A stretch of 64,000 nt of DNA from Candidatus Methanomethylophilaceae archaeon (GTDB lineage: Archaea; Thermoplasmatota; Thermoplasmata; Methanomassiliicoccales; Methanomethylophilaceae). A program made the translations under genes and the position numbers. Location: the NCBI GenBank assembly GCA_944320495.1, contig CALUHR010000008.1, positions 42,249-106,248 on the forward strand. The letters run 5' to 3'. The notes below the pieces were generated by a model that was not told where the DNA came from, made no database searches, and saw nothing but the letters and a program-made list of their open reading frames with translations. Numbering within the stretch: position 1 is the first letter of the stretch; every line of letters begins with the position of its first letter. Below are positions 4,088 to 41,162 of the stretch, one piece after another.

Positions 4088-6190
4088 ATGGCGGGCCGCA
4101 CCACGAAGAGGGCCCCCGCGGACGAGACCCCTGCGGCCCCCGATCTCTACGACTCCAAGTACTACATCAACAGGGAGCTGTCGTGGCTCGAGTTCAACAG
4201 GAGGTGCCTCGAGGAGGCCAAGGACGCCTCCAACCCCCTGCTGGAGAGGGTGAAGTTCCTGGCGATATGCTACGGGAACCTGGACGAGTTCTACATGATC
4301 CGCGTCCCCGGGATCATCGCCAAGACCCCCATACCCGGACCGGACTACCTAACGATCAACTACAACACCCTGATGCAGCAGGTCTCCGAGACCGTGCAGA
4401 AGCTCGTCTTCGAGTACTCCGACTGCTGGAACGGGATCAAGACGGAGCTCGCCGAGGCGGGCATCGTCATCAGCAAGGTGGAGCAGCTCTCGCCCGACCA
4501 GCAGGCCTGGGTGGCCGGGTTCTACAAGCAGAGGGTCCACCCCCTGCTGACCCCGCTGGCACTGGACGTGAGCCACCCGTTCCCGTTCATCTCCAACAAC
4601 TCGCTGAACATCGCGGTGAGGATGTACGACAAGAACCACGAACAGCTGTTCGCCCGTGTCAAGGTCCCCGTCGGCGTCCTCCCCAGGTTCGTGCGGGTCC
4701 CCTCCACAAAGGGCGAGCAGTACGTCCTCCTGGAGGACATCCTGGAGAACCACATCTCCTCGCTGTTCCCCGGCCTCGACGTGGTGGGTGCGTACATGTT
4801 CCGCGTCACACGCAACGCGGATGTGAAGGTCACGATCGACGAGGCCTGCGACTTCATGACCGCGGTCGAGGAGTCCCTCGAGGACAGGGACATCGGGTTC
4901 CCCGTCAGGATGGCCGTCGAGCGCACCATGCCGCCGGAGATGGTCAAACTGTTCGCCAGGAACCTGAAGCTCAGCGACCTCCAGGTCCACAGGACCGACG
5001 CCATCAGCCTCGGGGACCTGTGGGAGCTCGTGGGCCTGGACTATCCGAAGATGAAGGACAAGCCCTTCGAGCCCTACACCCCGCCGGAGCTGGCCGAGGG
5101 GATGGACATATTCGAGTCCATCAAGGACAGGGACTGGATCCTGTTCCACCCCTACGAATCGTTCCAGACCATCGTCCGCTTCATCACCACATCCGCCGAG
5201 GACCTAAACGTCCAGAGCATCAAGATCTGCCTGTACAGGATCGGCAAGGACCCGTCCCTGGTGAAGGCGCTGATGCGCGCCAAGGAGAACGGCAAGACGG
5301 TCTCGGTCCTGATGGAGCTCCGCGCCAAGTTCGACGAGAGCAACAACATCCTGTGGGCCAGGGAGATGGAGAAGATCGGCGTGCACGTGGTCTACGGTCC
5401 GGTGAACCTGAAGGTCCACTCCAAGCTCCTCCAGGTCGTCCGCCTCGAGGGGGAGAAGCTCGTCCGCTACACGCACATGAGCTCGGGCAACTACAACTCG
5501 TCCACCGCCAAGCAGTACGGGGACATCTCGTTCCTGACCGCCAACCCGGAGATCGGGGAGGACGTGGGGGAGCTGTTCAACGCCCTGACCGGATACTTCG
5601 GACCCAGGATGTACACGCATCTGCTGGTGGCTCCGCTGACACTTAAGAGCTCCCTGATCGAGAAGATCGAGCGCGAGATAGAGGTGTGCAGGACCACCGG
5701 AAGCGGGTACATCGCCATGAAGGCGAACGGGCTGATCGACTCGGACATCATCGCCGCGCTCTACAAGGCGTCCAACGCCGGCGTCCGCATCGACCTCAAC
5801 ATCCGCGGACTCTGCTGCCTACGCCCGGGGATCCCCGGTGTCTCGGAGAACATCAGGGTCACCAGCATCGTGGACAGGTTCCTCGAGCACTCGAGGATCT
5901 ACTACTTCGAGAACGGCGGCCATCCGGAGATGTACATGGGATCATCGGACATGATGCCCAGGAACCTACTGGCCAGGGTGGAGGTGCTGTTCCCCGTGCT
6001 GGACCAGGACATGCTCGCCCACATAAGGGACGACATCCTGAGGATCCATCTCAGCGACAACGTGAAGGCACGCGAGCTTCTGCCCGACGGCACCTACAGG
6101 CTCGTCCAGAGGCCGGAGGGCGAGAAGAGGATGAGATCCCAGAAGTGGTTCCTCGACCACAGGGGATGCTGGCATGGAACAGAGGACTGA
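4088..6190 (+). CDS. ppk1: Polyphosphate kinase 1
   Basis: YINRELSWLEFN, HPFPFI, LFHPYESF, ELRAKFDE, KVHSKL, GNYN, RFLEHSRI motifs. Confidence 0.97.
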   Translation: MAGRTTKRAPADETPAAPDLYDSKYYINRELSWLEFNRRCLEEAKDASNPLLERVKFLAICYGNLDEFYMIRVPGIIAKTPIPGPDYLTINYNTLMQQVSETVQKLVFEYSDCWNGIKTELAEAGIVISKVEQLSPDQQAWVAGFYKQRVHPLLTPLALDVSHPFPFISNNSLNIAVRMYDKNHEQLFARVKVPVGVLPRFVRVPSTKGEQYVLLEDILENHISSLFPGLDVVGAYMFRVTRNADVKVTIDEACDFMTAVEESLEDRDIGFPVRMAVERTMPPEMVKLFARNLKLSDLQVHRTDAISLGDLWELVGLDYPKMKDKPFEPYTPPELAEGMDIFESIKDRDWILFHPYESFQTIVRFITTSAEDLNVQSIKICLYRIGKDPSLVKALMRAKENGKTVSVLMELRAKFDESNNILWAREMEKIGVHVVYGPVNLKVHSKLLQVVRLEGEKLVRYTHMSSGNYNSSTAKQYGDISFLTANPEIGEDVGELFNALTGYFGPRMYTHLLVAPLTLKSSLIEKIEREIEVCRTTGSGYIAMKANGLIDSDIIAALYKASNAGVRIDLNIRGLCCLRPGIPGVSENIRVTSIVDRFLEHSRIYYFENGGHPEMYMGSSDMMPRNLLARVEVLFPVLDQDMLAHIRDDILRIHLSDNVKARELLPDGTYRLVQRPEGEKRMRSQKWFLDHRGCWHGTED

Positions 6191-7748
6191 CACCGAGACC
6201 GTAGGCTTCATCGACGTCGGCACCAACTCCATCCATCTGCTGGTGGTCAGGTTCTATCCTGACACCTCCGGGACGCCCATATTCCAGGACAAGGAGTCCG
6301 TGAGGCTGGGCAAGAGCCTGTACAGCACCGGGCGCATCACCCCCGAGGCGGTGGAGAAGAGCGCCCTGGTCGTATCGAGGTTCGCCCGGATATCCAGAGG
6401 CCTCGGCGCAGACCGCGTGATCGCGTTCGCGACCTGCGCGGCCAGGGAGGCCGCCAACCGCCAGGAGCTCATCGACGCCGTCTCCAAGGATGTGGAGCTG
6501 AAGGTAATCCCCGGCACCGAGGAGGCCAGGCTGATCGCCCTGGGCGTATTCGGGGACCAGGGGCCGGCTGAGCGCACAGTCGAGATCGACATCGGCGGGG
6601 GCAGCACCGAGGTCATCGTCCGCGAGAAGGGCGAGGACATCTTCCTCGACAGCCTCAGCATGGGCGCGGTCCGCTACAACTACTCCCTCAACATCGACTG
6701 CTCCGGACCCGTGAGCCAGGAGCAGTACTCCATGATACTCCGCACCGTCGACATATCGTCGTACCACGCGGTGAACAAGGTCCGCGCCCTCGGCTTCCGC
6801 AGAGCGGTGGGATCCTCCGGGACGCTCATGTCCATAGCCGACATGTGCGCCGCCCGCAGGGGAGACGGGGACGCCTCGTACTTCACCCGCAAGGAGCTCC
6901 GCTCACTGATGCAGGACCTCTGTCCCATGACCGCCGAGGAGCGCCTCAGGGTCCCGGGCATGGGGAAGACGAGATCGGACATCATCATCCCCGGAGGGGC
7001 GATAGCAGAGGAGCTGATGTCCCTTTTCGGCATATCCAGGATGGACATAAGCCCGGACGGGCTCAAGCAGGGGATGATGCTGGACCATCAGCTCTCCCAC
7101 GGGTACACCGTATTCGGTGCCAGGCAGTCCTCCGTGCGCGCCCTGGCCCACAGGTGCCAGTACGACCGCCGCCATGCCGAGACCGTCGAGCGCAACGCCA
7201 TGTCCCTCTTCGACCAGTCGAGGGAGCTGGGAATGCACGACCTCGGCCCGCAGTGGAGGAGCCTGCTCTCCTGCGCGTGCATACTGCACGACATAGGCGA
7301 GCTAATCAGCTACTCCAACCACAACGTGCTGTCCCAGGTCATCATCGAGAAGGCCGACCTCCAGGGGTTCACCTGCGAGGAGATCGCGGCCATGGGTCTC
7401 ATGGTCAGGTTCCACCACAAGAAGTTCCCCGGCCCGAAGGACTCCCGCCTGGCGGGCATGTCCAGGGAGGACGCCACAGCCGTCAGGGTGTGCGCCATGC
7501 TGCTCAAGATGGCGGACGTCATGGACCGCCACAGGAACAACTCGGTCCGCAGCGCGCGCATGAGGATAGACGGGGGGCGTCTCATCCTATCGCTCTCCGC
7601 CGATGAGGACCCCAGCATGGAGATCTGGAGCCTCGAGCGCATCCGCCCCGACTTCCAGAAGCTCTTCGGTCTGGACCTCGTGCCCGTCTCCGTAGATCCG
7701 ATGACACCCGTCCCGTCTCGGAACGGGGCCGGAACATCCCCGGAATGA
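6174..7748 (+). CDS. ppx: Exopolyphosphatase Ppx/GppA with C-terminal HD domain
   Basis: IDVGTNSIHL, EEARL, DIGGGSTE, LHDIG motifs; overlaps ppk1 end. Confidence 0.93.
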   Translation: MEQRTDTETVGFIDVGTNSIHLLVVRFYPDTSGTPIFQDKESVRLGKSLYSTGRITPEAVEKSALVVSRFARISRGLGADRVIAFATCAAREAANRQELIDAVSKDVELKVIPGTEEARLIALGVFGDQGPAERTVEIDIGGGSTEVIVREKGEDIFLDSLSMGAVRYNYSLNIDCSGPVSQEQYSMILRTVDISSYHAVNKVRALGFRRAVGSSGTLMSIADMCAARRGDGDASYFTRKELRSLMQDLCPMTAEERLRVPGMGKTRSDIIIPGGAIAEELMSLFGISRMDISPDGLKQGMMLDHQLSHGYTVFGARQSSVRALAHRCQYDRRHAETVERNAMSLFDQSRELGMHDLGPQWRSLLSCACILHDIGELISYSNHNVLSQVIIEKADLQGFTCEEIAAMGLMVRFHHKKFPGPKDSRLAGMSREDATAVRVCAMLLKMADVMDRHRNNSVRSARMRIDGGRLILSLSADEDPSMEIWSLERIRPDFQKLFGLDLVPVSVDPMTPVPSRNGAGTSPE

Positions 7749-7903
7749 GCCTCGGACCCGCTCCGGACGGGCGAAAAAGGACAGATTCAAATAATCCAGC
7801 AGGGATAGGGAATCAGAGTGGAAGCCGGTCCCCTTGCATGGAAGAGATTCCAAACCGGCCTCTACTTACCTTCACATCCCGCCTTCATCAGCGGACGTGA
7901 TGG

Positions 7904-9193
7904 ATGGGGGATCTCATGGTGACGGGCACGGCATTCTTCGAAGCGGCCGCCGCCTACAACGATGCACCGGTGAAGAGCGGATTGTGCTCCATATGCAAGG
8001 GCGCCCACAGGCTGTGCGGCAAGGACCGCTGCCCCCTGATGATCAAGTTCTACTCGCAGCAGAAGACCCGGCCGCTCATAGACGCCAAGGACCTGGCCGG
8101 CTCAAGCCCACCGTCCGTCTTCGTGGGACGCTACGGATACCCGAAGGTGGACATCGGACCCCTGGTCCCGCCGGAGTTCGGTGACACCTCCGTAATGGGG
8201 AGACCTGAGATGTGGGTCGGGAAGTCGATAGACGAGATCGTCGACATGCGCTTCCGCCTGGTGAGGGGGAAGTACCGCATCGACGCCACCGACTTCGCGA
8301 AGTACGGGCGCATGGTGGACGCGGTCCAGGAGGTGGCGCTGACCGAGCGCCCCATAGACATAGAGACCACCTTCTCCCAGAAGCCCCGCGGCAGGGTCGT
8401 CCTGGACGATGACATCGAGCCCTTCGGTCCTTCGGCCAGGATGGAGGCCATGTCCATAGGCAACGGGAGGTTCGAGAGGAACCTGGAGAGGTCGTTCTAC
8501 GACACCGACATGCGCGCCGTGGACGCCGTGGTGTCGGCGTACAGGGGAGGGACCCTGATCTCCGAGATCCAGAAGGCCTTCTCTGTTGGAACGATGGGGA
8601 CCGGCAAGCGCAGGCGCTTCGTCCCCACCAGATGGAGCATCACCGCCGTCGACGACATCATAGGCAAGGACCTGCTGAAGACCACCAGGTGGAACCCGAC
8701 CATCGACGACTTCAGGCTCTACCTCTGGGAGGAGCTGGACAACAGGTGGGCCATCCTCCTGATGCCCTGCACCTGGAGGTTCGAGCTCATAGAGGCGTGG
8801 TATCCCAACACCACCTGGAACCCCACCGGGAAGACCATAGACGTCATCCACGACAGCGAGTTCTTCGACGGCAGGACGGAGTACGCCCACATCGGAGGAT
8901 GCTACTACGCGTCAAGGATGGCGGTCAACGAGCTGCTCATTAAAGAGGGGAGGACCGCAGGTGCCGTCATCATGAGGGAGGCCCATCCCGGATACGTTAT
9001 GCCCGTCGGGGTCTGGAACGTCAGGGAGAACGTCCGCGCCGCTCTGAAGACGGAGCCCCTCCATTTCGAGACCTACGACCAGGCGATGACCCGTGTGGAG
9101 CAGATGATGGACATCAAGCGCGACGGATGGATCGCCAACTCCGACGTGATGAGGGACTGGCTCGTCCAGAGGAGGATTGAGGACTATTACCGA
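7904..9193 (+). CDS. nreA: Nre family archaeal DNA repair protein with C-terminal PIP box
   Basis: N-terminal CxxC..C..C, GSSPPSVFVG, PTRWSITAVDD, GGCYYA; ends QRRIEDYY then CGA 9191-9193. Standard code runs on to 10225. Start may be ATG 7916. Confidence 0.88.
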
Positions 9194-15881: not shown

Positions 15882-16985
15882 ATGGCCGACATGGAGTACA
15901 GGAGACTGCCTCACGGCGGGGAGGAGATCAGCGTAATCGGATTCGGGACGGGGTTCAACGAGTTCCCAGGCCACGAGGCGATGGTGCGGACCATACGCTT
16001 CGCGCTCGACTCCGGCATCAACCTGCTCGATCTCACGCCATGGGATGCCAGGGTGCTGGGGGCCTTCGGCGAGGCCCTGAGGGGGAGGCGCGAGGACGCA
16101 TACCTCCAGATCCACTTCGGGTCCGACTACCCCTCCGGAACCTACGAGAGGATCCACGGGCTTGACAGGGTCAGGAAGGCCGTGGAGCGGCAGATGGCCC
16201 AGGTTGGCACCGACTACATCGACTTCGGATTCATACACTGCCTCGACGATCCGCAGGTCTTTGAGGACGAGTTCTCCAACGGCACCATCGACTATCTCCT
16301 GAAGCTCAGGGATGAGGGTATCGTGCGCCATGTGGCGCTGTCCACCCACACCCCCTCCATCGCCAACAGGGTCCTCGACGAGGGATTCCTGGACCTCCTG
16401 ATGTTCAGCATCAACCCCGCCTATGACTACCAGCATGGGCAGTACGCCTTCGGCGGGACCGACGAGAGGGCGGAGCTCTACACCCGCTGCATGACCGATG
16501 GCGTTGGGATATCGGTCATGAAGCCGTTCAGCAAGGGGCAGCTGCTGGATCCATCCCTGTCGCCTTTCGGGAAGGGTCTCACCGTCAACCAGTGCCTGCA
16601 GTACGCCCTAGACAAGCCCGGCGTGGTGTCGGTTCTGCCCGGCATCAAGGGGATGGACGACCTCCGCGGTGTGCTGTCGTTCCTGGACTCCACACCGGAG
16701 GAGAGGGACTACTCCGTGGTGAGGACGTTCTCCCCGCCGGACGTGTCCGGGAGATGCGTCTACTGCAACCACTGCCAGCCCTGTCCTCGGGGCATCAACG
16801 TCGGACTGGTCAACAAGTACTACGACCTCGTCCTCGCAGGCGACGCACTGGCCGCCGACCACTACATGAACCTCTCGCTCAAGGCGGGTGACTGCGTCGG
16901 ATGCGGCCACTGCAACGATGTCTGTCCGTTCCATGTGGACCAGGTCAGGAGGATGGCGGAGATCCGGGACCGCTTCGGGCAGTGA
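15882..16985 (+). CDS. Aldo/keto reductase with C-terminal 4Fe-4S domain
   Basis: ISVIGFG, TDYIDFGFIHC, VMKPF; CVYCNHCQPCP and CVGCGHCNDVCP. Confidence 0.92.
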   Translation: MADMEYRRLPHGGEEISVIGFGTGFNEFPGHEAMVRTIRFALDSGINLLDLTPWDARVLGAFGEALRGRREDAYLQIHFGSDYPSGTYERIHGLDRVRKAVERQMAQVGTDYIDFGFIHCLDDPQVFEDEFSNGTIDYLLKLRDEGIVRHVALSTHTPSIANRVLDEGFLDLLMFSINPAYDYQHGQYAFGGTDERAELYTRCMTDGVGISVMKPFSKGQLLDPSLSPFGKGLTVNQCLQYALDKPGVVSVLPGIKGMDDLRGVLSFLDSTPEERDYSVVRTFSPPDVSGRCVYCNHCQPCPRGINVGLVNKYYDLVLAGDALAADHYMNLSLKAGDCVGCGHCNDVCPFHVDQVRRMAEIRDRFGQ

Positions 16986-17061
16986 CCCCTGGGACCCGAA
17001 CACGGGCCCTCGACAATCCTTTATAACGGCGGAGCCGATGCGTCTGCGGGATGGATGCACA

Positions 17062-17835
17062 ATGCGCGCAGCGCTATACGCCAGGGTCTCGACGGACGAC
17101 CAGGCGGTCGAGGGTTTCTCGCTCGACGCCCAGGTCAAGCGCCTCGAGGCCTATTGCAGGGTCCGCGGCTGGGAGGTCGGCGGGATCTACAGGGACGAGG
17201 GGTTCTCCGGCAGGAACACCAAGCGTCCGGAGTACGAGAGGATGATGCGCGAGTCCGACTCGTGGGACGTCCTCCTCGTTCTGAAGATGGACCGTATCCA
17301 CAGGAACAGCGTCAACTTCGCCCGCATGATGGACGACCTGCGCGACATGGGCAAGGAGTTCAACTCGGTCCAGGAGAAGTTCGACACCACCACCGCCATG
17401 GGACGGTTCGTCATGGACATCATGCAGAGGATCGCCCAGCTGGAGAGCGAGCAGATCGGCGAGAGGACGTTCATGGGCATGGAGTTCAAGGCCCGCAACG
17501 GCACCGGAAACCTCGGCTCCGGCCACCCGTACGGATACGTGTACACCGAGCACGGCCTGGAGGTCGTGAAGGATGAGGCGCATACGGTGCGCGCGATCTA
17601 CAACATGTACGTAAGGGGCTCCACCATGGAGGACATCGCCGGATTCCTCAACAGCGCCGAGATCCCCGCCAAGAAGGGCGGCAAGTGGAACAGGCAGTCC
17701 GTCTGCAACATCCTCCACAACCCGCTCTACGTGGGATACTCGGAGTGGAACGGCATCCTGCGCAAGGGCGAGCAGCAGCCCATCGTCGAGATGGCGGTCT
17801 TCGAGAAGGTCAACGGGCCGTTGGAGATCCAGCGA
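17062..17835 (+). CDS. Serine recombinase (resolvase + recombinase domains), copy 1
   Basis: ALYARVST, DEGFSG, KMDRIHRN; CGA 17833-17835 overlaps the next ATG. Standard end 17856. Confidence 0.92.
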
Positions 17836-18692
17836 TGCGTGCGGCCATATACGTGAGGGTCTCCACCGAGGAGCAGGCCGCCGAGGGGTACTCCATCGAG
17901 GCCCAGAAGGAGCTACTCCAGGACTACTGCATCGTCGAGGGGTGGGAGGTCGCCGGCGTCTACGAGGACGACGGATTCTCCGGAAGGAACGACAAGCGTC
18001 CCGCCTACCGCAAGATGATGTCGGAGATGGACCTTTGGGATGTGGTCGTCGTCATCAAGATGGACCGTATCCACAGGAACAGCCGCAACTTCATGTCCAT
18101 GATGGACACGCTCACCAAGCATGGGAAGATGTTCGTGTCCTCGTCCGAAGCATTGGATACGACCAACGCCCTCGGGAGGTTCGTGGTCGACATGATACAG
18201 AGGCTCGCCCAGCTGGAGAGCGAGCAGATCGGCGAGAGGACGTACATGGGCATGCGCGAGAAGGCCGAGACCCTCGAGGCCGTCCAATCCGGTAAGAGGA
18301 CCATGGGCTTCACGCCGCCGTTCGGCTACCGTCTTGAGGACGGGGCACTCGTCGAGGACGAGGGGGAGCTCCCGATCGTCAGGCGCATGTTCGCCGAATA
18401 TGCCGAGGGCAGGCCCATGGATGCGATATGCTTCGGCCTCAACCGCGACGGGATACTCACCCGCAGGGGCAATCCCTGGAACAAGCGCAACCTCGCCAAC
18501 ATCCTCCACAACCCCGTCTACGCCGGGTACATGAGATGGGAGGACATCCTCATCCGCCACGATGCGGAGACGGTCCTCTCGCCGGAGCAGTTCAACGGCG
18601 TGCAGGAGCGCATCGCCTCCAGGATCAGGGACCCCTCCAAGAGGGGCGTGAATCTCCTTCCAACAGAGTCAGATTATGCGACGGGGATGCGA
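17835..18692 (+). CDS. Serine recombinase, copy 2
   Basis: AIYVRVST, DDGFSG, KMDRIHRN, TPPFGYR; CGA 18690-18692. Standard end TAG 18710. Confidence 0.92.
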
Positions 18693-18908
18693 ACCGGACG
18701 AGCCGGTTAGTTAACGGAGAACGTTCGGTGCAAATATCCCATATTATAAATAATGTATCCGAAAAAGTCCATTTGTTGACGTCTCAATCTCCATTGTCTG
18801 GCACATGCCTCTGGATGTCTATGCCTGTACGCATGCGCCACATATGGTATTAAATAGTGATTACGTCGAATCATTCCCCGGGTCCTAGACCCAATAGGAG
18901 GAAAACAA

Positions 18909-19603: not shown

Positions 19604-20355
19604 TGATCGCCGTCGTCACCGGGGCATCGTCGGGCATCGGGGCCGAGTTCTGCAGGGCCCTGGACGGGGAGGGGCTGGATTCCATCTGGATCATCGCCAG
19701 GAGAGCCGACAGGCTGGAGGCCCTGGCATCCGAGCTCTCCACCCCCTGCGTCGTAATCCACGCGGATCTCACCGACAGGAAGCAGCTGTCCGAGCTCGTC
19801 GGACGCATAGGATCCTCCGGCGAGAGGGTCGACTACCTGGTGAACTGCGCCGGAGTCGGCAGGTTCGGAGAGACCTGGGAGCTCTCATCGGAGGAGACGC
19901 TGTCCATGATCGACCTGAACGTCTCCGCCCTCACGGAGATGTGCCGCGGATGCATCCCCCGCATGGAATCCGGATCCCGCATCATCAACGTCTGCTCCGC
20001 ATCCGCGTATCTTCCGCTGGAGCGCCTCAACGTGTATTCCGCCACCAAGGCGTACGTGCGCGCGTTCTGCAACGCCCTCGGAAGGGAGCTAAAGACCAGA
20101 GGCATCACGGTATTGGAGGTCTCCCCTGGATGGGTGGAGACAGATTTCATCCCGCTCTCCAGGTCCACAGGCGACGTTCCCGAGACTGTCTTCAAGCACA
20201 CCGTTAAGGCTCGCGACGTCGCCGTGAGGGCCATCGCCGACGCCAAGCACGGGAGGAAGCGCTCGATATGCGGCGCGTACAACAGGCTCCAGGTCTTCGT
20301 GTGCACCCACATGCCTCGCATGGCATCATACGTCTGGGGAAGGTCCCTGCTGTGA
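19603..20355 (+). CDS. Short-chain dehydrogenase/reductase (DltE-like)
   Basis: VTGASSGIG, NCAG, YSATK catalytic motif. Confidence 0.93.
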   Translation: MIAVVTGASSGIGAEFCRALDGEGLDSIWIIARRADRLEALASELSTPCVVIHADLTDRKQLSELVGRIGSSGERVDYLVNCAGVGRFGETWELSSEETLSMIDLNVSALTEMCRGCIPRMESGSRIINVCSASAYLPLERLNVYSATKAYVRAFCNALGRELKTRGITVLEVSPGWVETDFIPLSRSTGDVPETVFKHTVKARDVAVRAIADAKHGRKRSICGAYNRLQVFVCTHMPRMASYVWGRSLL

Positions 20356-20957
20356 CGACGGTCCTCCGCGAGTTCAGGGAGGGGGACTGCAAACCCATAT
20401 CCGCGATAATGTGCGACGTCTGGTCCATGGTGAGCTACGGCGCCGATGTCGCCATGCCCGGGTCGAGGATGTACTGCTGCCAATGCGTCCTCGGGTCGTC
20501 GTTCATCCGTGTGGCCGAGGTCGACGGGAGGATCGTCGGATGCGTCGGGGCCAGATACGGGAACGAGAGGGTCGATGCACCCTGGGCCGAGAGGATGCTG
20601 CGGCAAGAGAGGGATTCCTTGGCGAACTCCGAGGACGGGATGCGGATGATCGCCGAGTTCGAGTCCTACGATTCCATAGACAGGGACCTCGGCATCAGTA
20701 CCGAGATCGACACCGATGCGGAGCTCACCATACTCATCCTTTCCGAGGGTTGCAGGGGACTCGGACTGGGCAGGATGATGTTCAACGCCGCCTGCGATTA
20801 CCTTCGCTCCAAGGGCGCCGGGAGCATGATGCTGTACACCGACACCGACTGCAACACAGGGTTCTACGATGCCCTCGGCGCAGAGCGCGTGGCAACCTCA
20901 GGAATGATGTGCCTGGGGGAGCCGCTCGGAATGTTCCTTTACAGATATCCGCTGCGA
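20352..20957 (+). CDS. GNAT acetyltransferase
   Basis: GTG start overlapping the SDR stop; CRGLGLGR acetyl-CoA motif, YTDTDCNTGFY; ends MFLYRYPL-CGA. Standard end 21131 overlaps the convergent gene. Confidence 0.85.
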
Positions 20958-20964
20958 GGAGTCA

Positions 20965-22053
20965 TCGGAATCCGAACAGAGCCTTCGCATTGTCGACATG
21001 CTCCTCCGCATCGAGATGGAACGGACACCTCGAGGTGCACCTGCCACAGTGCAGACAGTCGGAAGCGTGCTTCGACAGAGCCCTGTAGTGCTCCCAGGCC
21101 ATCTCGTCGCCAACGGCGAACAAGTCGCTGAACTTGTTGACCTTCCCGATGTCGATGCCTGCGGGGCACGGGAGGCAGTGGTTACAGTAGACGCACTGGT
21201 CCTACATGTCCGCCGCCGTCAGGCCGCCGATGAACGAGTAGTCCCTCTCCTCCCTAGAAGCGTCTAGGTACGAGAGCATAGCCTCGAGCTGTCCGACTGA
21301 GCCTATTCCCGGGACCACGGACACTGCCCCGGGGCGGTCCAGCGCGTACTGAATGCACTGCGCCGGGGTCATCGCCCTCCCGAACGGGGAGGTCTCGGCA
21401 TCCATCAAGATGCCTCCCCCATAGGGCTTCATCACGACTATCCCGATCCCCCTGCGCTCGCAGTCGCGGTAGAGCTCCAGCCTCTCGGGGTCCATCACGA
21501 GGCCGTTGTCCCCGGCCACGAAGTCATAGGTGGGATTGAGGCTGAGCATGAAGTCGTCGACAACCGTTTCCTCGATGAAGCGCCTGCATATCTCTGGGGT
21601 GTGAGACGTGAACCCGATGTTGTCCACGCGCCCCTCGTCCTTCCATTCGACCAGCATGTCGTACAGCCCATCGGACATGATGCGCTCGTAGTCCTGGGCC
21701 TCGTCGACGCAGTGGAAGAGCAGCAGGTCGGCGTGATCGAGACCGTACTTCCTCAGCTCGGTCTCGAAGGACTCGCGGCACTCCTCGGGGTCCCTCGTGG
21801 CCGCGTACTGACCTCCTGGGTAGTGTACGCCGGTCTGCAGCTGGAACACCATCCCGTCTCCGTGCTCCCTGACGGCCTCCCTGATGGCGGGAGCGCAGGG
21901 GTCGTCATACATGGAGGTCTCCATGAAGTTGACGCCTGCGTCCATAGCCTTCGATACGATGGTGTGGACATCGTCACCCGCATCCCTGAGGAAGCCAGAT
22001 CCAAGACCCAGTGCGCTGATCCTTTTACCGCTACGAAGTCTCCTGTACTCCAT
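20965..22053 (-). CDS. Aldo/keto reductase with 4Fe-4S domain; in-frame TAG at 21202-21204 (putative Pyl)
   Basis: Paralog of 15882-16985; the frame continues past TAG as DQCVYCNHCLPCP...CLHCGRCTSRCP, ending GF-CGA-TGA. Confidence 0.88.
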
Positions 22054-22166
22054 GGGAACACCTACTAGTGACTGCATGTCAGCTATCTCCCGTATAATTA
22101 CTATGTGGTCACGCTCACGAGAAGACGACATCGATATAACCGCACATAGCGTCCACCTCATCAGAC

Positions 22167-23366
22167 ATGGGGCAGGACATGTGGTGGCTGATGCACGGCG
22201 ACATATCCGTCGCCTCGGTTCACATCGACAGATACGGTCATCTGACATCATTGGGAGAGATATTCGATGAAGATCATCTGCCAGTCGGTGTGAAGACCGG
22301 TGACAGGGAGCACACCCTCGAAGGACTCGATCGCTGGTGGTCGAAGCGCGCGATACCCATCTCAAGACCCGGCGTGTCAGCCATGTTGGAATCCATGGGG
22401 ATCGCATCCACGGAATCGCTTCAGATGATGTCCAAGGGACTGGGCCTCTCGGACTCCTATTGGATCCGTCCGGAAGGATCGGACCTGTCATGGTCGGACG
22501 TGAACTTCCACGATAACGATTTCTCCGAGGAGGTCGGCAACGCCCTGTTCAACCATGGCACGACCGACGTCCTGAACTTCGACTCCCCGGACTCCTCCTC
22601 GGACGGCAACCTCAGGAAGAGATGGGTGATCGAGGATGGGGTGAGGATCCTGATGAAAGGCGGGAGCGGCCAGATGCAGGAACCGTTCAATGAGGTCCTT
22701 GCATCAGAGATCATGCGTCGCCTGGACGTACGGCACGTCGACTACAATCTGAGATGGGTTGATGGCGAGCCGTTCTCCGTCTGTCCAGCGTTCACCGACA
22801 GCCGCACCGAGCTCGTGCCTGCCTGGTCCGTGCTCGCGACGTGCAAGAGAGAAGATGGGGAGACGCTTTACGACTTCACGAGACGCTGCTTCGAGTGCTG
22901 CGGACTGAAGGACCCCACCGCTTCCCTTGAGAGGATGATTGCCGTTGATTTCCTGATAGCGAATGAGGACAGGCACCTCGGGAACTTCGGTCTGCTCCGC
23001 GACCCCGAGACTCTGAAAACCAAGGGGTTCGCCCCGCTGTACGACAACGGGGCCTCGCTGGGGCATCGCGTGATCACGCTCTGGATAGAGGAGGGTTACG
23101 ACCTGATCTGCCGGCCGTTCAAGGTCACCCACGGAGAACAGATCCATCTGGTCAGGGACCTCGGATGGTTCGACCCCGACAGGCTGGAGGGCATGGACGA
23201 CTTCGCCAAGGATCTGTTCGATGGGTCAAAAGGGTTCGTGGACGAGCGCAGGAACAAGGCGATCATCGGATTCCTACAGAGAAGGATCGACAAGCTCGCC
23301 CAGTACGCCGAGAGTCCGGACTTCCGGGACGACCGGCACCTGGACCTGAGAGTGGTAAGCGGCTGA
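22167..23366 (+). CDS. HipA-like kinase (HipA_C domain), copy 1
   Basis: SSDGNLRKRW, LMKGG, EPFNEVLASEI, IANEDRHLGNFG, APLYDNG. Confidence 0.85.
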   Translation: MGQDMWWLMHGDISVASVHIDRYGHLTSLGEIFDEDHLPVGVKTGDREHTLEGLDRWWSKRAIPISRPGVSAMLESMGIASTESLQMMSKGLGLSDSYWIRPEGSDLSWSDVNFHDNDFSEEVGNALFNHGTTDVLNFDSPDSSSDGNLRKRWVIEDGVRILMKGGSGQMQEPFNEVLASEIMRRLDVRHVDYNLRWVDGEPFSVCPAFTDSRTELVPAWSVLATCKREDGETLYDFTRRCFECCGLKDPTASLERMIAVDFLIANEDRHLGNFGLLRDPETLKTKGFAPLYDNGASLGHRVITLWIEEGYDLICRPFKVTHGEQIHLVRDLGWFDPDRLEGMDDFAKDLFDGSKGFVDERRNKAIIGFLQRRIDKLAQYAESPDFRDDRHLDLRVVSG

Positions 23367-23818: not shown

Positions 23819-24988
23819 GTGTCGGAGGGACGTTTTCAGCTCATGCAAGGGGACCACCGGGTCGCAGAGGTGTGCATCTCCGACAACGGCATTATGACGG
23901 AGCTACGTGAGATGTTCGATCCGGAGAGGATGCCCTGGGGGACCATTGGCACCGACCCCGGCGATACCATCAGAAGGCTCGGAGAATGGTGGGGATATCG
24001 CTGCATCCCGAGGAAGAGGAACATCCAGGACGCACTGGGTCGCCTCGGATTCAGCTCGAGCGAGGCGCTCATGACCGCTGGCCTGGCGGTCAACATGACG
24101 GACCGCTACTGGATCCGCCCGAACGGGAGCGGCCTGTCGTGGGACGATGTCAGCCCCCACACCAACGACTTCTCCGAGACGCTGGGCAGGACGCTGCTCG
24201 GTAAGGGGGACGGGTTCGAACCGTCTCCGGACTGCGCCACCGACGGGATGGTCCCGAAGATGTGGACATCGGAACGTCGCCTGCTCAAAGGCGGGACGAC
24301 CCGCTGCAGGCAGCAGCCGTACAACGAGGTCCTGGCCTCGGAGGTCATGAGACGCCTCGACGTGGAGCACGTCGATTACGATCTGAGGCGCATCGACGGG
24401 AAGGTTGTCAGCTCGTGCCCGTGCATCACCTCAGAAGGGGTGGAGATGATACAGGCCAGATGTCTGATGATGACCCGCCCGATGGACAGGTCTAAATCCA
24501 TCTACCACCACCTCATGGAGAGATGCGGGAGCATAGGCCTCGTGGACCCGAAGGACTTCGTAGACAGGATGCTCGTCGTCGATCACATCATGGCGAACAA
24601 CGACCGGCACTACAACAACTTCTCCATCCTCAGGGACCCGGAGTCGCTAGAGGTCCTCGGCTTCGCCCCCATATACGACACGGGCTCGTCCCTGGGCTAC
24701 GACCTCCGGGTCGGGGACATCTCTGGATCGGAGACGAGGGGCAGGACGTTCAAGGCACGTCTCGACGACCAGTTGCTGCTCCTCGGGGACACGGACTGGA
24801 TCGATCTGGACGCTCTCGAGGGGATCGACTCCTTCGCCCGTCGTCTGATGGGAGGCTCGGAAACGGTCTCGCCCGAGAGGGTGGAAGCGGTCGTAGAGCT
24901 CCTGCTGTCCCGTATCGAGTCGCTGAGGGACCGCATCGAGAATCCACGCGGATTCCGCGACGAGCCGTCCGAGGACATACCGGTCCGA
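23819..24988 (+). CDS. HipA-like kinase, copy 2
   Basis: DGMVPKMW, LLKGG, PYNEVLASEV, MANNDRHYNNF, APIYDTG; ends EDIPV-CGA. Standard end 25123 reads into AT-rich DNA. Confidence 0.85.
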
Positions 24989-26394
24989 TCGTCGTGTTGT
25001 CAGCAAATGTCGTCAATAATTCTCACTGCGAACTTGGAGAGCACCAGCTTACGTTCCTGCATGCGAATATCTTGTCTCAGATGTGTAGCTAATATAATTT
25101 ATCTGATAGCTATTCTTGATTAATTAATTTTAAACTATTCCCATTCATCTCTGAATACAGCGAAAACATTGTTTCAAAGGCGCAGAGACTCGATTCAACG
25201 ATGAGACGTATTCAACCGATCATGGGATTATCAGCATCCATCGGGCAACGGGATGATGTCTTTGTCATGCGGATGGTGGCCCTTGCATTAGGGCGGACAG
25301 TGGAGCCGTCAGTCCAGGTTCATCGATTGTTCAACCGTGTTGATGAAATCGACTCTACACTCATGTTCGATCCATGGCCGTCTCCAGTCGATTAGGAGGG
25401 GTGTGGAATCCAACTCGGGAATCATCAATCCTTCTGATGGAAAGAGACCCCATGCATTGCAAGATGTCCGACCTACAGTGATCAACCGGCAGATCATATC
25501 AGAGCAGATGGAACCAGACCGATGTATCCGGATCTAGATCGGATCGGACGACGTCAGAAAGGCAGAGGAGCCACTTCTACCTCACAGCAATGAGCTGATG
25601 CACTCGGACATCGACTCTGTTCCGCATGCACGTGGGATGTCTGCGGCGCTCATTCTTGCTGTCTACATGAAACCTGATATCGGAGCCTCTCGAAGACGAT
25701 ACCGAAGACTCGATGCATTGTATCGATACAAATCAAGTGTATTAAGATATCAACTTAATTAATTACAAATAGCAAACAAAATGCAGAAACCTGGTGCAAA
25801 ATTTAATTAATTGAGGTAGAAAAAGAGGAAGATATCGGGGTCGATCGGAGCGGCTTCGAAACCCCTCGAAATCGCACGAAAACCCCACCCTTTTCGGTGA
25901 TTTTCCGGGATCCCAAGTACACATTCGGGAGGCCGTCGTGGACACGAAGGTGCCCAAAAACCGATGATTTTTCCAAATCGGATCCATAAATGAAGATTTT
26001 CTGCCTATGTGCAGAAAATGACCCTGAAATGTGCGATTTGCACTAGATTTTTGAGAAATTCTTCATATTCGAGAATAAATGATGAAATAACGATATTTGC
26101 TTTATTTTATTAGTACCTGTGAATCCTATTGGGTTCCTTCCGGGTACAATGCAACGATACTCGAAAAATGACGTTTTCAAATGATAAATGGAGAATTCAT
26201 TAAAATCTGAGATTAATAAATGTAATAAATGCTCTAGCTTTATTTTATAAGCATTCTGTATGGATTCAAAGAACGAATGCAAAGATGTGAGATTAATCAA
26301 TGAAGTAAAGTTATCTACTTTACTAATATCGATAAAATAAGAAATGAGGGTTTTAGGGCGGAACTGCCGCGTAGAGACGATTCCGCCCATGGAA
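24989..26394. other. About 1.4 kb apparently non-coding, partly AT-rich region
   Basis: No credible ORF; TTAATTAA at 25120, 25755 and 25803. Confidence 0.6.
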
Positions 26395-39089: not shown

Positions 39090-41162
39090 TCGTCCCTCCG
39101 CGGCCTCGATGAGGCCGCGGATCAACTCCCCTTCCCTTGCGGACCAGAAGCCGACGTCACATACCACGACGAGTCTGCGTCTGGCCCTTGAGACCGCCGT
39201 GTTGATCACCCTTCTGCCCATCGGCGTCTCCGAGCTCGTGAACCTCAGGGGGACGTCCCTGTTCACGGTCCCGCTGTCCGCCACGCTGAGCACCACCGTG
39301 TCCCATTCCCTCCCCTGGGACCCGTGGACGGTCATCACGCAGTCTGAATACCTGCGCCCCACCTTGGACCTCAGGAGCCTGCACTGCGCCGTGTAAGGCG
39401 AAAGGACGCACACATCCGAGGGGTCTGGCGACGAAGCCTTCAGCAGCCTGGCTATGGCATCCGCCTCCGCCCTGTTCTCGCGGGTGTCGCGCTCCCCGCA
39501 GACGACGTCGATGCACTCTATCGACATGTCCGTCTCCGAGGAACCGGTCATGCCGTTGCGGTAGACGTAGCGGTCCAGGACCCTGGCGAGGGATTCCCCG
39601 AACCTCCTCGAATCTGTCAGGTCCCTGCGCACTGTGACCGAGAAGGACGGCCCGGAGCCGGAGATGTACTCGGCACGCAGGTCGATCAGGCCTCTTGTGA
39701 GGACGGTCTCGCAATGGAGGGCGGACATGTTCCAGATGAACGCATCGGAAAGCCATCCGCCCGACTGAGCCCTGTCCATGAGCAGGGCCTCGTCGAGCTG
39801 GGTCACCGGCGGAAGCTGCATGTGGTCCCCGAACATGGCCACCGGCACGCCGTTGGTGAAGAGGGCGAGCGCCTGCACCAGGCCACAGTATCCGGCCTCG
39901 TCGAGGAATATCCTGTCCACGTCGAGCTCCATCCTCCCGTCCTCGGGGGAGCCCTTCGGACGGAATCTGGAGATGAACTGGTGGGGCGTCGCCGCGATTA
40001 TCGGAGCACTGGCTATCCTGTTCCCGGTCGACCTGGACCTCAGCACGGACATCTCATCGTAGAGCCTGGAGATCTCCGCCGATATCTCCTCCGCGCTCCA
40101 CTCGCCGTACTCGGAGATCTCCGCCGCCGGACGCTCGCGGTCGAAGAGGGCGGAATGGAGCTATCTCGCGGCCTCCGACAGCGGTACGCCCTCCGACATT
40201 ATCGCGGCGGTCGAAGGGCGCATGGAAGCCACCGTCATTATGTCCCCGATGATGCGCTCCCTCTCAGGATCACCGTCGGCATACCCCTCCGCATCGTCCA
40301 GGATCCCGGCGGACGTCAGGTGCTCGAGCTGGGCCCTTACGGAATCGCAGGCCCTCTCGTAGAGGACCTCCTCGAGATTCCCGATGGACCTGGCACATCC
40401 GTCTATCCTCATCTGGGCCTGGTTGTCCTCGCACATGTCCGGATGCTCCGCGAGGAACCCCTTCGTCGGGACGCCCAGCCTGACTATCCCCTTCGGGACC
40501 CCGTCCTCGCCGAACGCCCCCAGGATCCCCCTCAGCACCTGCTCGACCGAGTTGTTGGTGGGTGCGAACACCGCGACCCTCTCACCGGCCTCGAGACAGC
40601 CGCGGATGCAGGATGCCAGAACGAACTGGGTCTTGCCCGTGCCCGGGGCCCCCCAGACATACGACATCGACGACGAGGCGACCGCCAGGGCCGCCGATTC
40701 CTGCTGTCCGGTCGGGACGCCGGGATATTGCGGCTCGACCGTGTTCTGAGGCTCGCCGGGGGCTCTGACGTAGGCCCCGTACCTGCGGTAGAAGTCCCCC
40801 GCGGCCAGTACCAGGAACTTCATGTCCGCGAGGACCGAGATCCTGGCACCCTCCACGGACATGACGCGGAGGACCTCGGCATCAGGCCTGACCACGATGG
40901 TCCTCGAGATCTCGTCGTACCTCGTGAACCCGGCATCCTGCTCGCCCAGGACCCTCTCGCCTATCCTGAGCAGGAGGCCCGAGGTGTCGCTGAGGCGGGC
41001 CGCCAGATGCAGTATCGCGAAGCCCTGCCTCACATCGGCGGAGGTCACCAGGGTCTCGGACATCCCCATCGGTGGATCCGTCACCCACTGCATGTCCTCC
41101 ATGTAGCGGTAGACGGCATCGGCCGATCCGGAGAACACCGCTGATATCTCTTCCCCATCCAT
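39090..41162 (-). CDS. Superfamily 1 (DNA2/NAM7/Upf1-like) helicase with in-frame TAG at 40161-40163
   Basis: Walker A WGAPGTGKT before the TAG; FLDEAG, GDHMQLPPV, SPYTAQ, TVHGSQGREWD, NTAVSRARRRL after it in the same frame; ends EAAEG-CGA. Confidence 0.88.

Follow-up and report, generated by a model that had tools for sequence, protein, structure and literature searches.

Pyrrolysine (Pyl) is conserved and catalytic in the methyltransferases MtmB, MtbB and MttB, and Pyl proteins that are not methyltransferases have been described by Borrel et al. 2014 (PMC4153887) and, for ISO4-H5, by Li et al. 2016 (PMC5011839). Kivenson et al. 2024 treated such use of TAG, with proteomics, as "Genetic Code 34" (bioRxiv 10.1101/2024.09.30.615893). 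TAG makes up 1.6% of the stops in Ca. M. alvus, for which 16 non-methyltransferase Pyl proteins were predicted (PMC4153887), and in-frame amber codons occur in 46 genes of ISO4-H5 (PMC5011839). In M. alvi, proteomics detected Pyl at the TAG in 12 of the 15 predicted Pyl proteins that were expressed; TAG was never seen as another residue, and Pyl was present wherever a spanning peptide was detected (10.1101/2024.09.30.615893). No aldo/keto reductase (AKR) is named among the Pyl proteins in the passages compared from the 2014, 2016 and 2024 reports. The gene described here can be likened, by its description, to AGY50215 of Ca. Methanomassiliicoccus intestinalis, which comes from another family of the order; AGY50215 is also a putative Fe-S protein with a predicted Pyl, and it too has a homologue in a relative that is without the TAG (PMC4153887).

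The gene described here is an AKR with a C-terminal Fe-S domain and one in-frame TAG. It shares its codon and decoding machinery with MtmB, MtbB and MttB, but its TAG is lineage-specific and lies in a hypervariable column, whereas the Pyl of the methyltransferases is conserved and catalytic. The tRNA-His guanylyltransferase (Thg1) of Methanosarcina acetivorans reportedly contains a Pyl that was interpreted as neutral evolution (a case cited by Kivenson et al. 2024), its read-through having been shown experimentally. Thg1 has a singleton Pyl at a non-conserved position in an enzyme unrelated to methylamine use, as is proposed for the present gene, although the protein and the order are different. 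The COG1453-type AKRs with a C-terminal ferredoxin-like domain have the same architecture, length and Cys motifs as the present gene but a sense codon at the column in question, as was found in all 120 homologues compared.

The window, the whole stretch of 64,000 nucleotides that was analyzed (contig C8, 42249-106248), belongs to a genome of 1.77 Mb in 14 contigs that is 90.6% complete and has a GC content of 61.5%. The features of the AKR gene and its paralog are as follows, in window positions.

20962 to 22053, minus strand: whole AKR/Fe-S gene, 363 codons plus TGA with the TAG read through.
21205 to 22053, minus strand: aldo/keto reductase (TIM-barrel) part, codons 1 to 283, from PF00248 and from an AF2 model with Foldseek.
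21202 to 21204, minus strand: in-frame TAG, codon 284, the proposed pyrrolysine codon; Ser or Thr in homologues, TCC in the metagenome contig L045.
20965 to 21201, minus strand: Fe-S domain, 79 codons after the TAG with all eight Cys kept, from Pfam and dN/dS.
21163 to 21195, minus strand: first Cys motif, C287-x2-C290-x2-C293-x2-C296-P, starting three residues past the TAG.
21022 to 21057, minus strand: second Cys motif, C333-x2-C336-x2-C339-x3-C343-P; its Cys columns are invariant or nearly so in homologues.
20962 to 20967, minus strand: gene end, CGA (codon 363, 20965-67) and then TGA (20962-64); the CGA aligns with a TGA in L045.
15882 to 16985, plus strand: unbroken paralog (367 aa), collinear with the TAG gene from end to end at 40% identity; its residue at the TAG column is Ser.

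The minus-strand codons around the TAG are GCG GAC ATG TAG GAC CAG TGC (..A D M * D Q C V Y C N H C L P C P..), and this TAG is the single interruption of the gene, at codon 284 of 363 counted from the ATG at 22053. The start (MEYRRL) was aligned with the start of the homologues. Before the TAG, Pfam model Aldo_ket_red (PF00248) matched with 5.8e-22 and 78.5 bits against a cut-off of 24, and the barrel in the AF2 model (pLDDT 89.4) had AKR11C1 and other AKRs as its best Foldseek matches (E ~1e-14). The usual D-x4-Y spacing of the AKR tetrad (Asp-Tyr-Lys-His) was not obvious by eye, and a sequence search for a solved structure in which the AKR barrel and the Fe-S domain occur together found none. 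After the TAG, the 4Fe-4S dicluster models Fer4_8, Fer4_9, Fer4_10 and Fer4_17 matched at ~1e-6, with Fer4_8, Fer4_10 and Fer4_17 above their cut-offs. The gene thus has both the barrel and the two four-Cys motifs of the class of AKRs with a C-terminal 2x[4Fe-4S] domain. The codons and the Pfam matches on either side confirmed the placement of the TAG, in a reading made earlier from the sequence only, within an AKR just before its Fe-S domain. That reading had also described an uninterrupted frame through two ferredoxin motifs to CGA-TGA and an unbroken paralog at 15882, and both descriptions held. The frame stays open for 79 codons by way of CVYCNHCLPCP and CLHCGRCTSRCP (...DQCVYCNHCLPCP...CLHCGRCTSRCP...FGF) and ends with FGF, CGA and TGA. 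By itself, a 79-codon open frame says little at 61% GC; open frames of at least 60 codons follow about a third of the ordinary stops in this genome. Upstream of the gene there are an AGGTG, 6 nt 5' of the ATG at 22053, and, ~40 nt upstream, a TAATTATA box (about 22093-22100), so that by eye the expression signals look intact.

The sequence-only reading had proposed a search of the genome for pylTSBCD. The search was successful for pylT, pylS, pylC and pylD, which form one cluster on contig C9 (65898-68756; about 5851-8756 of locus L025, minus strand), but not for pylB. PylS scored 260.8 bits against an NCBIfam cut-off of 178, and PylC (302 bits) and PylD (181.7 bits) were both above their NCBIfam cut-offs. 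The pylT gene was recognized by eye upstream of pylS, neither ARAGORN nor Rfam giving a match, as a 71-nt cloverleaf tRNA directly 5' of pylS; its anticodon is CUA, its D loop has 4 nt and its anticodon stem is bulged. Such a peculiar structure was described for the tRNA-Pyl of Methanomassiliicoccales by Borrel et al. (PMC3941956). In the tRNA of this genome, the D and anticodon arms have the same sequence as those given for M. alvus PylT in bioRxiv 10.1101/2025.08.31.673356, and the T arm has the same sequence as in Methanomethylophilus sp. 1R26. The best match to pylB in the 90.6%-complete assembly had 66 bits against a cut-off of 348, and Pyl synthesis is therefore incompletely documented for the genome. 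An assembly gap is the likeliest explanation of the missing gene: pylB is present in 22 of 23 good genomes of the genus, apart from the pyl cluster and often at contig ends, and in Ca. M. alvus it lies ~0.7 Mb away from pylTSCD (Borrel et al., PMC3941956). Judged from its gene content, the genome is very probably able to decode TAG as pyrrolysine.

Codon use at gene ends was assessed with a self-trained codon-usage model, a crude one, that gave 974 confident ORFs; a longest-ORF model had been dropped because antisense shadow ORFs beat real genes at 61% GC. The confident ORFs stop at TGA (862), TAA (76) or TAG (36). About 10 of the 36 TAG stops are internal, with coding-like sequence on either side, so that TAG ends at most 2.7% of ORFs. 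In 23 of the remaining 26 ORFs an in-frame CGA comes earlier and the sequence behind it looks non-coding, which leaves 3-4 possible true TAG gene ends. Genome-wide, the trinucleotide TAG occurs twice as often as TAA, yet more ORFs end at TAA.

In-frame TAGs were found in two MtmB and two MtbB genes, in a TatD gene in which a single Pfam stretch crosses the TAG, and in the genes of two giant surface proteins and one unknown protein, which are coding-like on both sides. The window has a second in-frame TAG (40161-40163), in the gene of an SF1-type helicase that extends from ~41162 down to 39090 on the minus strand (L016). In the helicase, AAA_11 crosses the TAG and AAA_12 follows it, and if the TAG is read as sense the frame continues to a CGA ~356 codons on. 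The TatD protein, the helicase and the giant surface proteins all have Pfam matches across the TAG or flanking it on both sides. Two ORFs elsewhere in the genome that carries C9 (C13:128268-129665, L013, and C6:79766-81499, L018) are also coding-like around a TAG, with 273+191 and 133+443 codons respectively, and are without a Pfam match. The sole MTTB-family gene (C6:92499-93950, L072) is near a contig end and has no internal TAG. The assembly yielded no mttB of the Pyl type; mtmB and mtbB each occur in it twice with a TAG.

These properties can be set beside those reported for M. alvus/alvi and their relatives, which have the same tRNA-Pyl type, a pylTSCD cluster arranged in the same way and separate from pylB, TAG only very rarely at gene ends and, in their Pyl proteins, a Pyl position that is not conserved in relatives. 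In M. alvi, Pyl was confirmed proteomically in most of the expressed candidates, whereas the present gene is known from sequence and its assembly is without pylB. Within the scheme of Kivenson et al. the gene resembles "Category 1", in which one internal TAG falls in an ordinary enzyme with homology on both sides. Homology extends over 99% of the length of the gene at 52% identity to an AKR of Methanosarcina siciliae (P0012), which is of the COG1453 type, and reaches 86-67% in metagenomic proteins. The read-through extension, for which the category asks more than 15 residues, is 79 codons; a pylT and pylS pair is present; and TAG is rare as an end and frequent internally, to the extent that a crude gene model can tell. 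As for the synthesis genes, pylC and pylD are above cut-offs, and pylB was not found in an assembly that is 90.6% complete.

The residue that orthologues have at the TAG column, which the sequence-only reading had left to be looked up, is Ser or Thr. The seven closest homologues, all of them metagenomic, read ..ADM[S/T]DQCVYC.. there and are 86% (P0001), 84% (P0004), 76% (P0002) and 67-70% (P0005 to P0008) identical to the TAG gene; P0003 is the window's own gene as shortened by a gene caller. A scan of metagenomes yielded L045 as the one usable orthologue, besides L046, an N-terminal fragment. The L045 contig shares synteny with the window across SDR, GNAT, AKR and two HipA-like genes and is the only syntenic relative of which the DNA was compared; its AKR is 76% identical and has the codon TCC at the column. 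The Ser or Thr of the seven homologues, together with this TCC, indicates that the TAG was derived from Ser in the lineage of the window. P0006 looks chimeric, with a barrel 76% identical to that of the TAG gene and an Fe-S domain nearly identical to that of the paralog at 15882-16985, a mosaic that suggests recombination between both paralog lineages in a related organism.

In the set of 120 homologues, 17 residue types (Q, E, A, R, D, S, Y, V, N, K, T, W and others) occur at the column, which is the most variable of its neighbourhood, and the Cys ligands that follow are present in 119-120 of the 120. TAG is a singleton, with a sense codon at the column in every homologue. In the AF2 model, residue 284 is in a coil after a short helix (pLDDT ~77), three residues before the first Cys ligand. 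Given the variable column and the coil position, a bulky lysine derivative would plausibly be tolerated at this site.

Constraint on the gene was measured against L045 (Nei-Gojobori). The dN/dS ratio was 0.109 downstream of the TAG and 0.107 upstream of it, at a dS of ~1.3-1.5 that is near saturation and therefore leaves the pairwise ratio blind to a very recent nonsense mutation. GC3 was 0.81 downstream and 0.83 upstream; the downstream part contains no frameshift and has kept its eight Cys and both Pro. Three-way comparisons with the intact P0001 gave private downstream changes, window versus P0001, of 2/10, 4/4, 2/4 and 1/4 depending on the outgroup, and the window branch thus had no excess of downstream changes relative to P0001. 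The sequence-only reading had named the lack of pyl genes and a downstream dN/dS of about 1 as signs of a nonsense pseudogene. Neither sign was seen, and a nonsense pseudogene by decay was not supported, as neither relaxed constraint nor lesions were seen downstream, with low power for a very recent event.

An orthologue of the TAG gene above 41% identity was found in none of 61 other species of the genus, and 100 genomes of the family contained only orthologues of the paralog; the flanks of these in genus and family were not syntenic with the window. A scan of genome contigs gave relatives of at most 43% identity, all of them bacterial. The TAG gene has a GNAT gene on one side and the HipA-like genes on the other, and two tandem serine recombinases lie a few kb away. 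The region is variable and the gene accessory, so that losing it would cost little. The two recombinase genes (Resolvase and Recombinase domains; 16888-17856 and 17685-18710, plus strand) directly follow the AKR paralog, and the ORF of the second runs to a TAG; their presence suggests that the TAG-bearing gene is part of an integrated or mobile region. The tandem HipA_C-like kinase genes (22167-23366 and 23819-25123, plus strand) were just under the Pfam cut-off and have kept their synteny with L045.

A separate observation concerns CGA at gene ends. In the confident ORFs, CGA numbers 5-22 per decile in mid-gene and 230 in the last decile; the tails after such CGAs score as non-coding in 88% of cases and the segments before them in 6%. 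Rare inside genes and enriched at their ends, CGA behaves like a terminator genome-wide. In the GNAT gene (about 20352-20957, plus strand), conservation with L045 stops exactly at the CGA at 20955-57 in both, so that there is no 170-nt convergent overlap with the AKR gene. The final CGA of the AKR gene aligns with the L045 TGA, and CGA as an end would alter the AKR by at most its last residue.

The TAG itself could in principle be an artefact of sequencing or assembly that replaced a sense codon such as TCG, in that the genome is a metagenome-assembled draft and the depth is low, ~2-7x per contig. The stretch is carried by chicken-gut and bird metagenomes, with no RNA run among the listed carriers. 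Three Logan contigs span the TAG, X1 (20800-21459) and X2 (21033-21239) from chicken gut in 2022 and X5 (21180-21344) from a bird metagenome of 2019 in a separate study, and all three match the window with zero differing letters. No alternative letter at 21202-21204 was listed in these three runs from two studies at that depth. The agreement of three independent assemblies makes an artefact very unlikely despite the low depth, and this explanation is effectively refuted.

The results are best explained, with a probability of roughly 0.8, by a neutral change from Ser to pyrrolysine that is read through to a full-length AKR/Fe-S protein. The gene would encode a live AKR fused to a C-terminal two-cluster [4Fe-4S] domain, in which a Ser codon of the variable linker before the first cluster motif would have become TAG. 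In this Methanomethylophilus-type gut methanogen, UAG would be decoded by Pyl-tRNA(CUA) charged by PylS, and the ribosome would insert pyrrolysine at residue 284 and go on to the normal end, giving the full-length protein. We infer that pyrrolysine is actually inserted at residue 284, with whatever efficiency, and that the change is most likely selectively neutral, a singleton Pyl of which no catalytic use would be made. The proposal of the sequence-only reading that Pyl is inserted in a protein other than a methyltransferase is supported at the level of sequence by pylT, pylS, pylC and pylD, by the Ser or Thr of the orthologues and by the downstream constraint. Since Pyl in non-methyltransferase proteins of this lineage has already been published, the proposal is sound, but it is not new.

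An unlikely alternative is a recent nonsense mutation, or inefficient suppression, by which translation would stop at residue 283 and yield a barrel without its Fe-S domain, the 79 codons being an undecayed relic. An accessory gene in a variable region, a TAG derived from Ser and an assembly without pylB all agree with such an event, which the saturated dS would hide from pairwise dN/dS, and open frames of this kind are common after ordinary stops in so GC-rich a genome. However, the suppressor tRNA, PylS, PylC and PylD are present, TAG is almost never a gene end, and at least 8 other genes are whole only through read-through. The same allele was sampled in 2019 and again in 2022, and the window branch showed no excess of downstream change; further, in M. 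alvi, Pyl was confirmed wherever a spanning peptide was detected (10.1101/2024.09.30.615893). It is improbable that the TAG serves a dual output, a short AKR and a full AKR/Fe-S protein in a ratio tied to pyrrolysine supply, or that Pyl284 has a selected role. The TAG coincides with the boundary between the two domains, three residues ahead of the first Cys ligand, and competition between release factor and tRNA-Pyl is compatible with the data. Yet its column is the most variable in the neighbourhood, the TAG occurs in 0 of 120 homologues, and published singleton Pyl residues have been read as neutral. A barrel-only form is without precedent, as the Fe-S Cys are present in 119-120 of the 120 homologues. 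No PYLIS-like structure was supported downstream of the TAG (z = -0.74), and according to the literature none is required. We also consider it very improbable that the TAG is non-neutral in a more specific way, with Pyl284 tuning a cluster or binding substrate via an imine, or with competition between termination and Pyl tying the full-length reductase to the supply of pyrrolysine, and hence of methylamine.

Standard gene callers shorten the gene to an AKR of 283 or 291 residues without its Fe-S domain, and P0003 is exactly such a form; on the Ser-to-pyrrolysine reading, annotation should take the TAG as a pyrrolysine codon. The AKR/ferredoxin fusion would join the list of singleton Pyl proteins as a further example of a published oddity that brings no new mechanism and no new question. 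It would also illustrate cleanly how a Ser in a hypervariable linker can give way to Pyl, in keeping with the published view that internal TAGs accumulate by neutral drift after UAG has lost its stop function.
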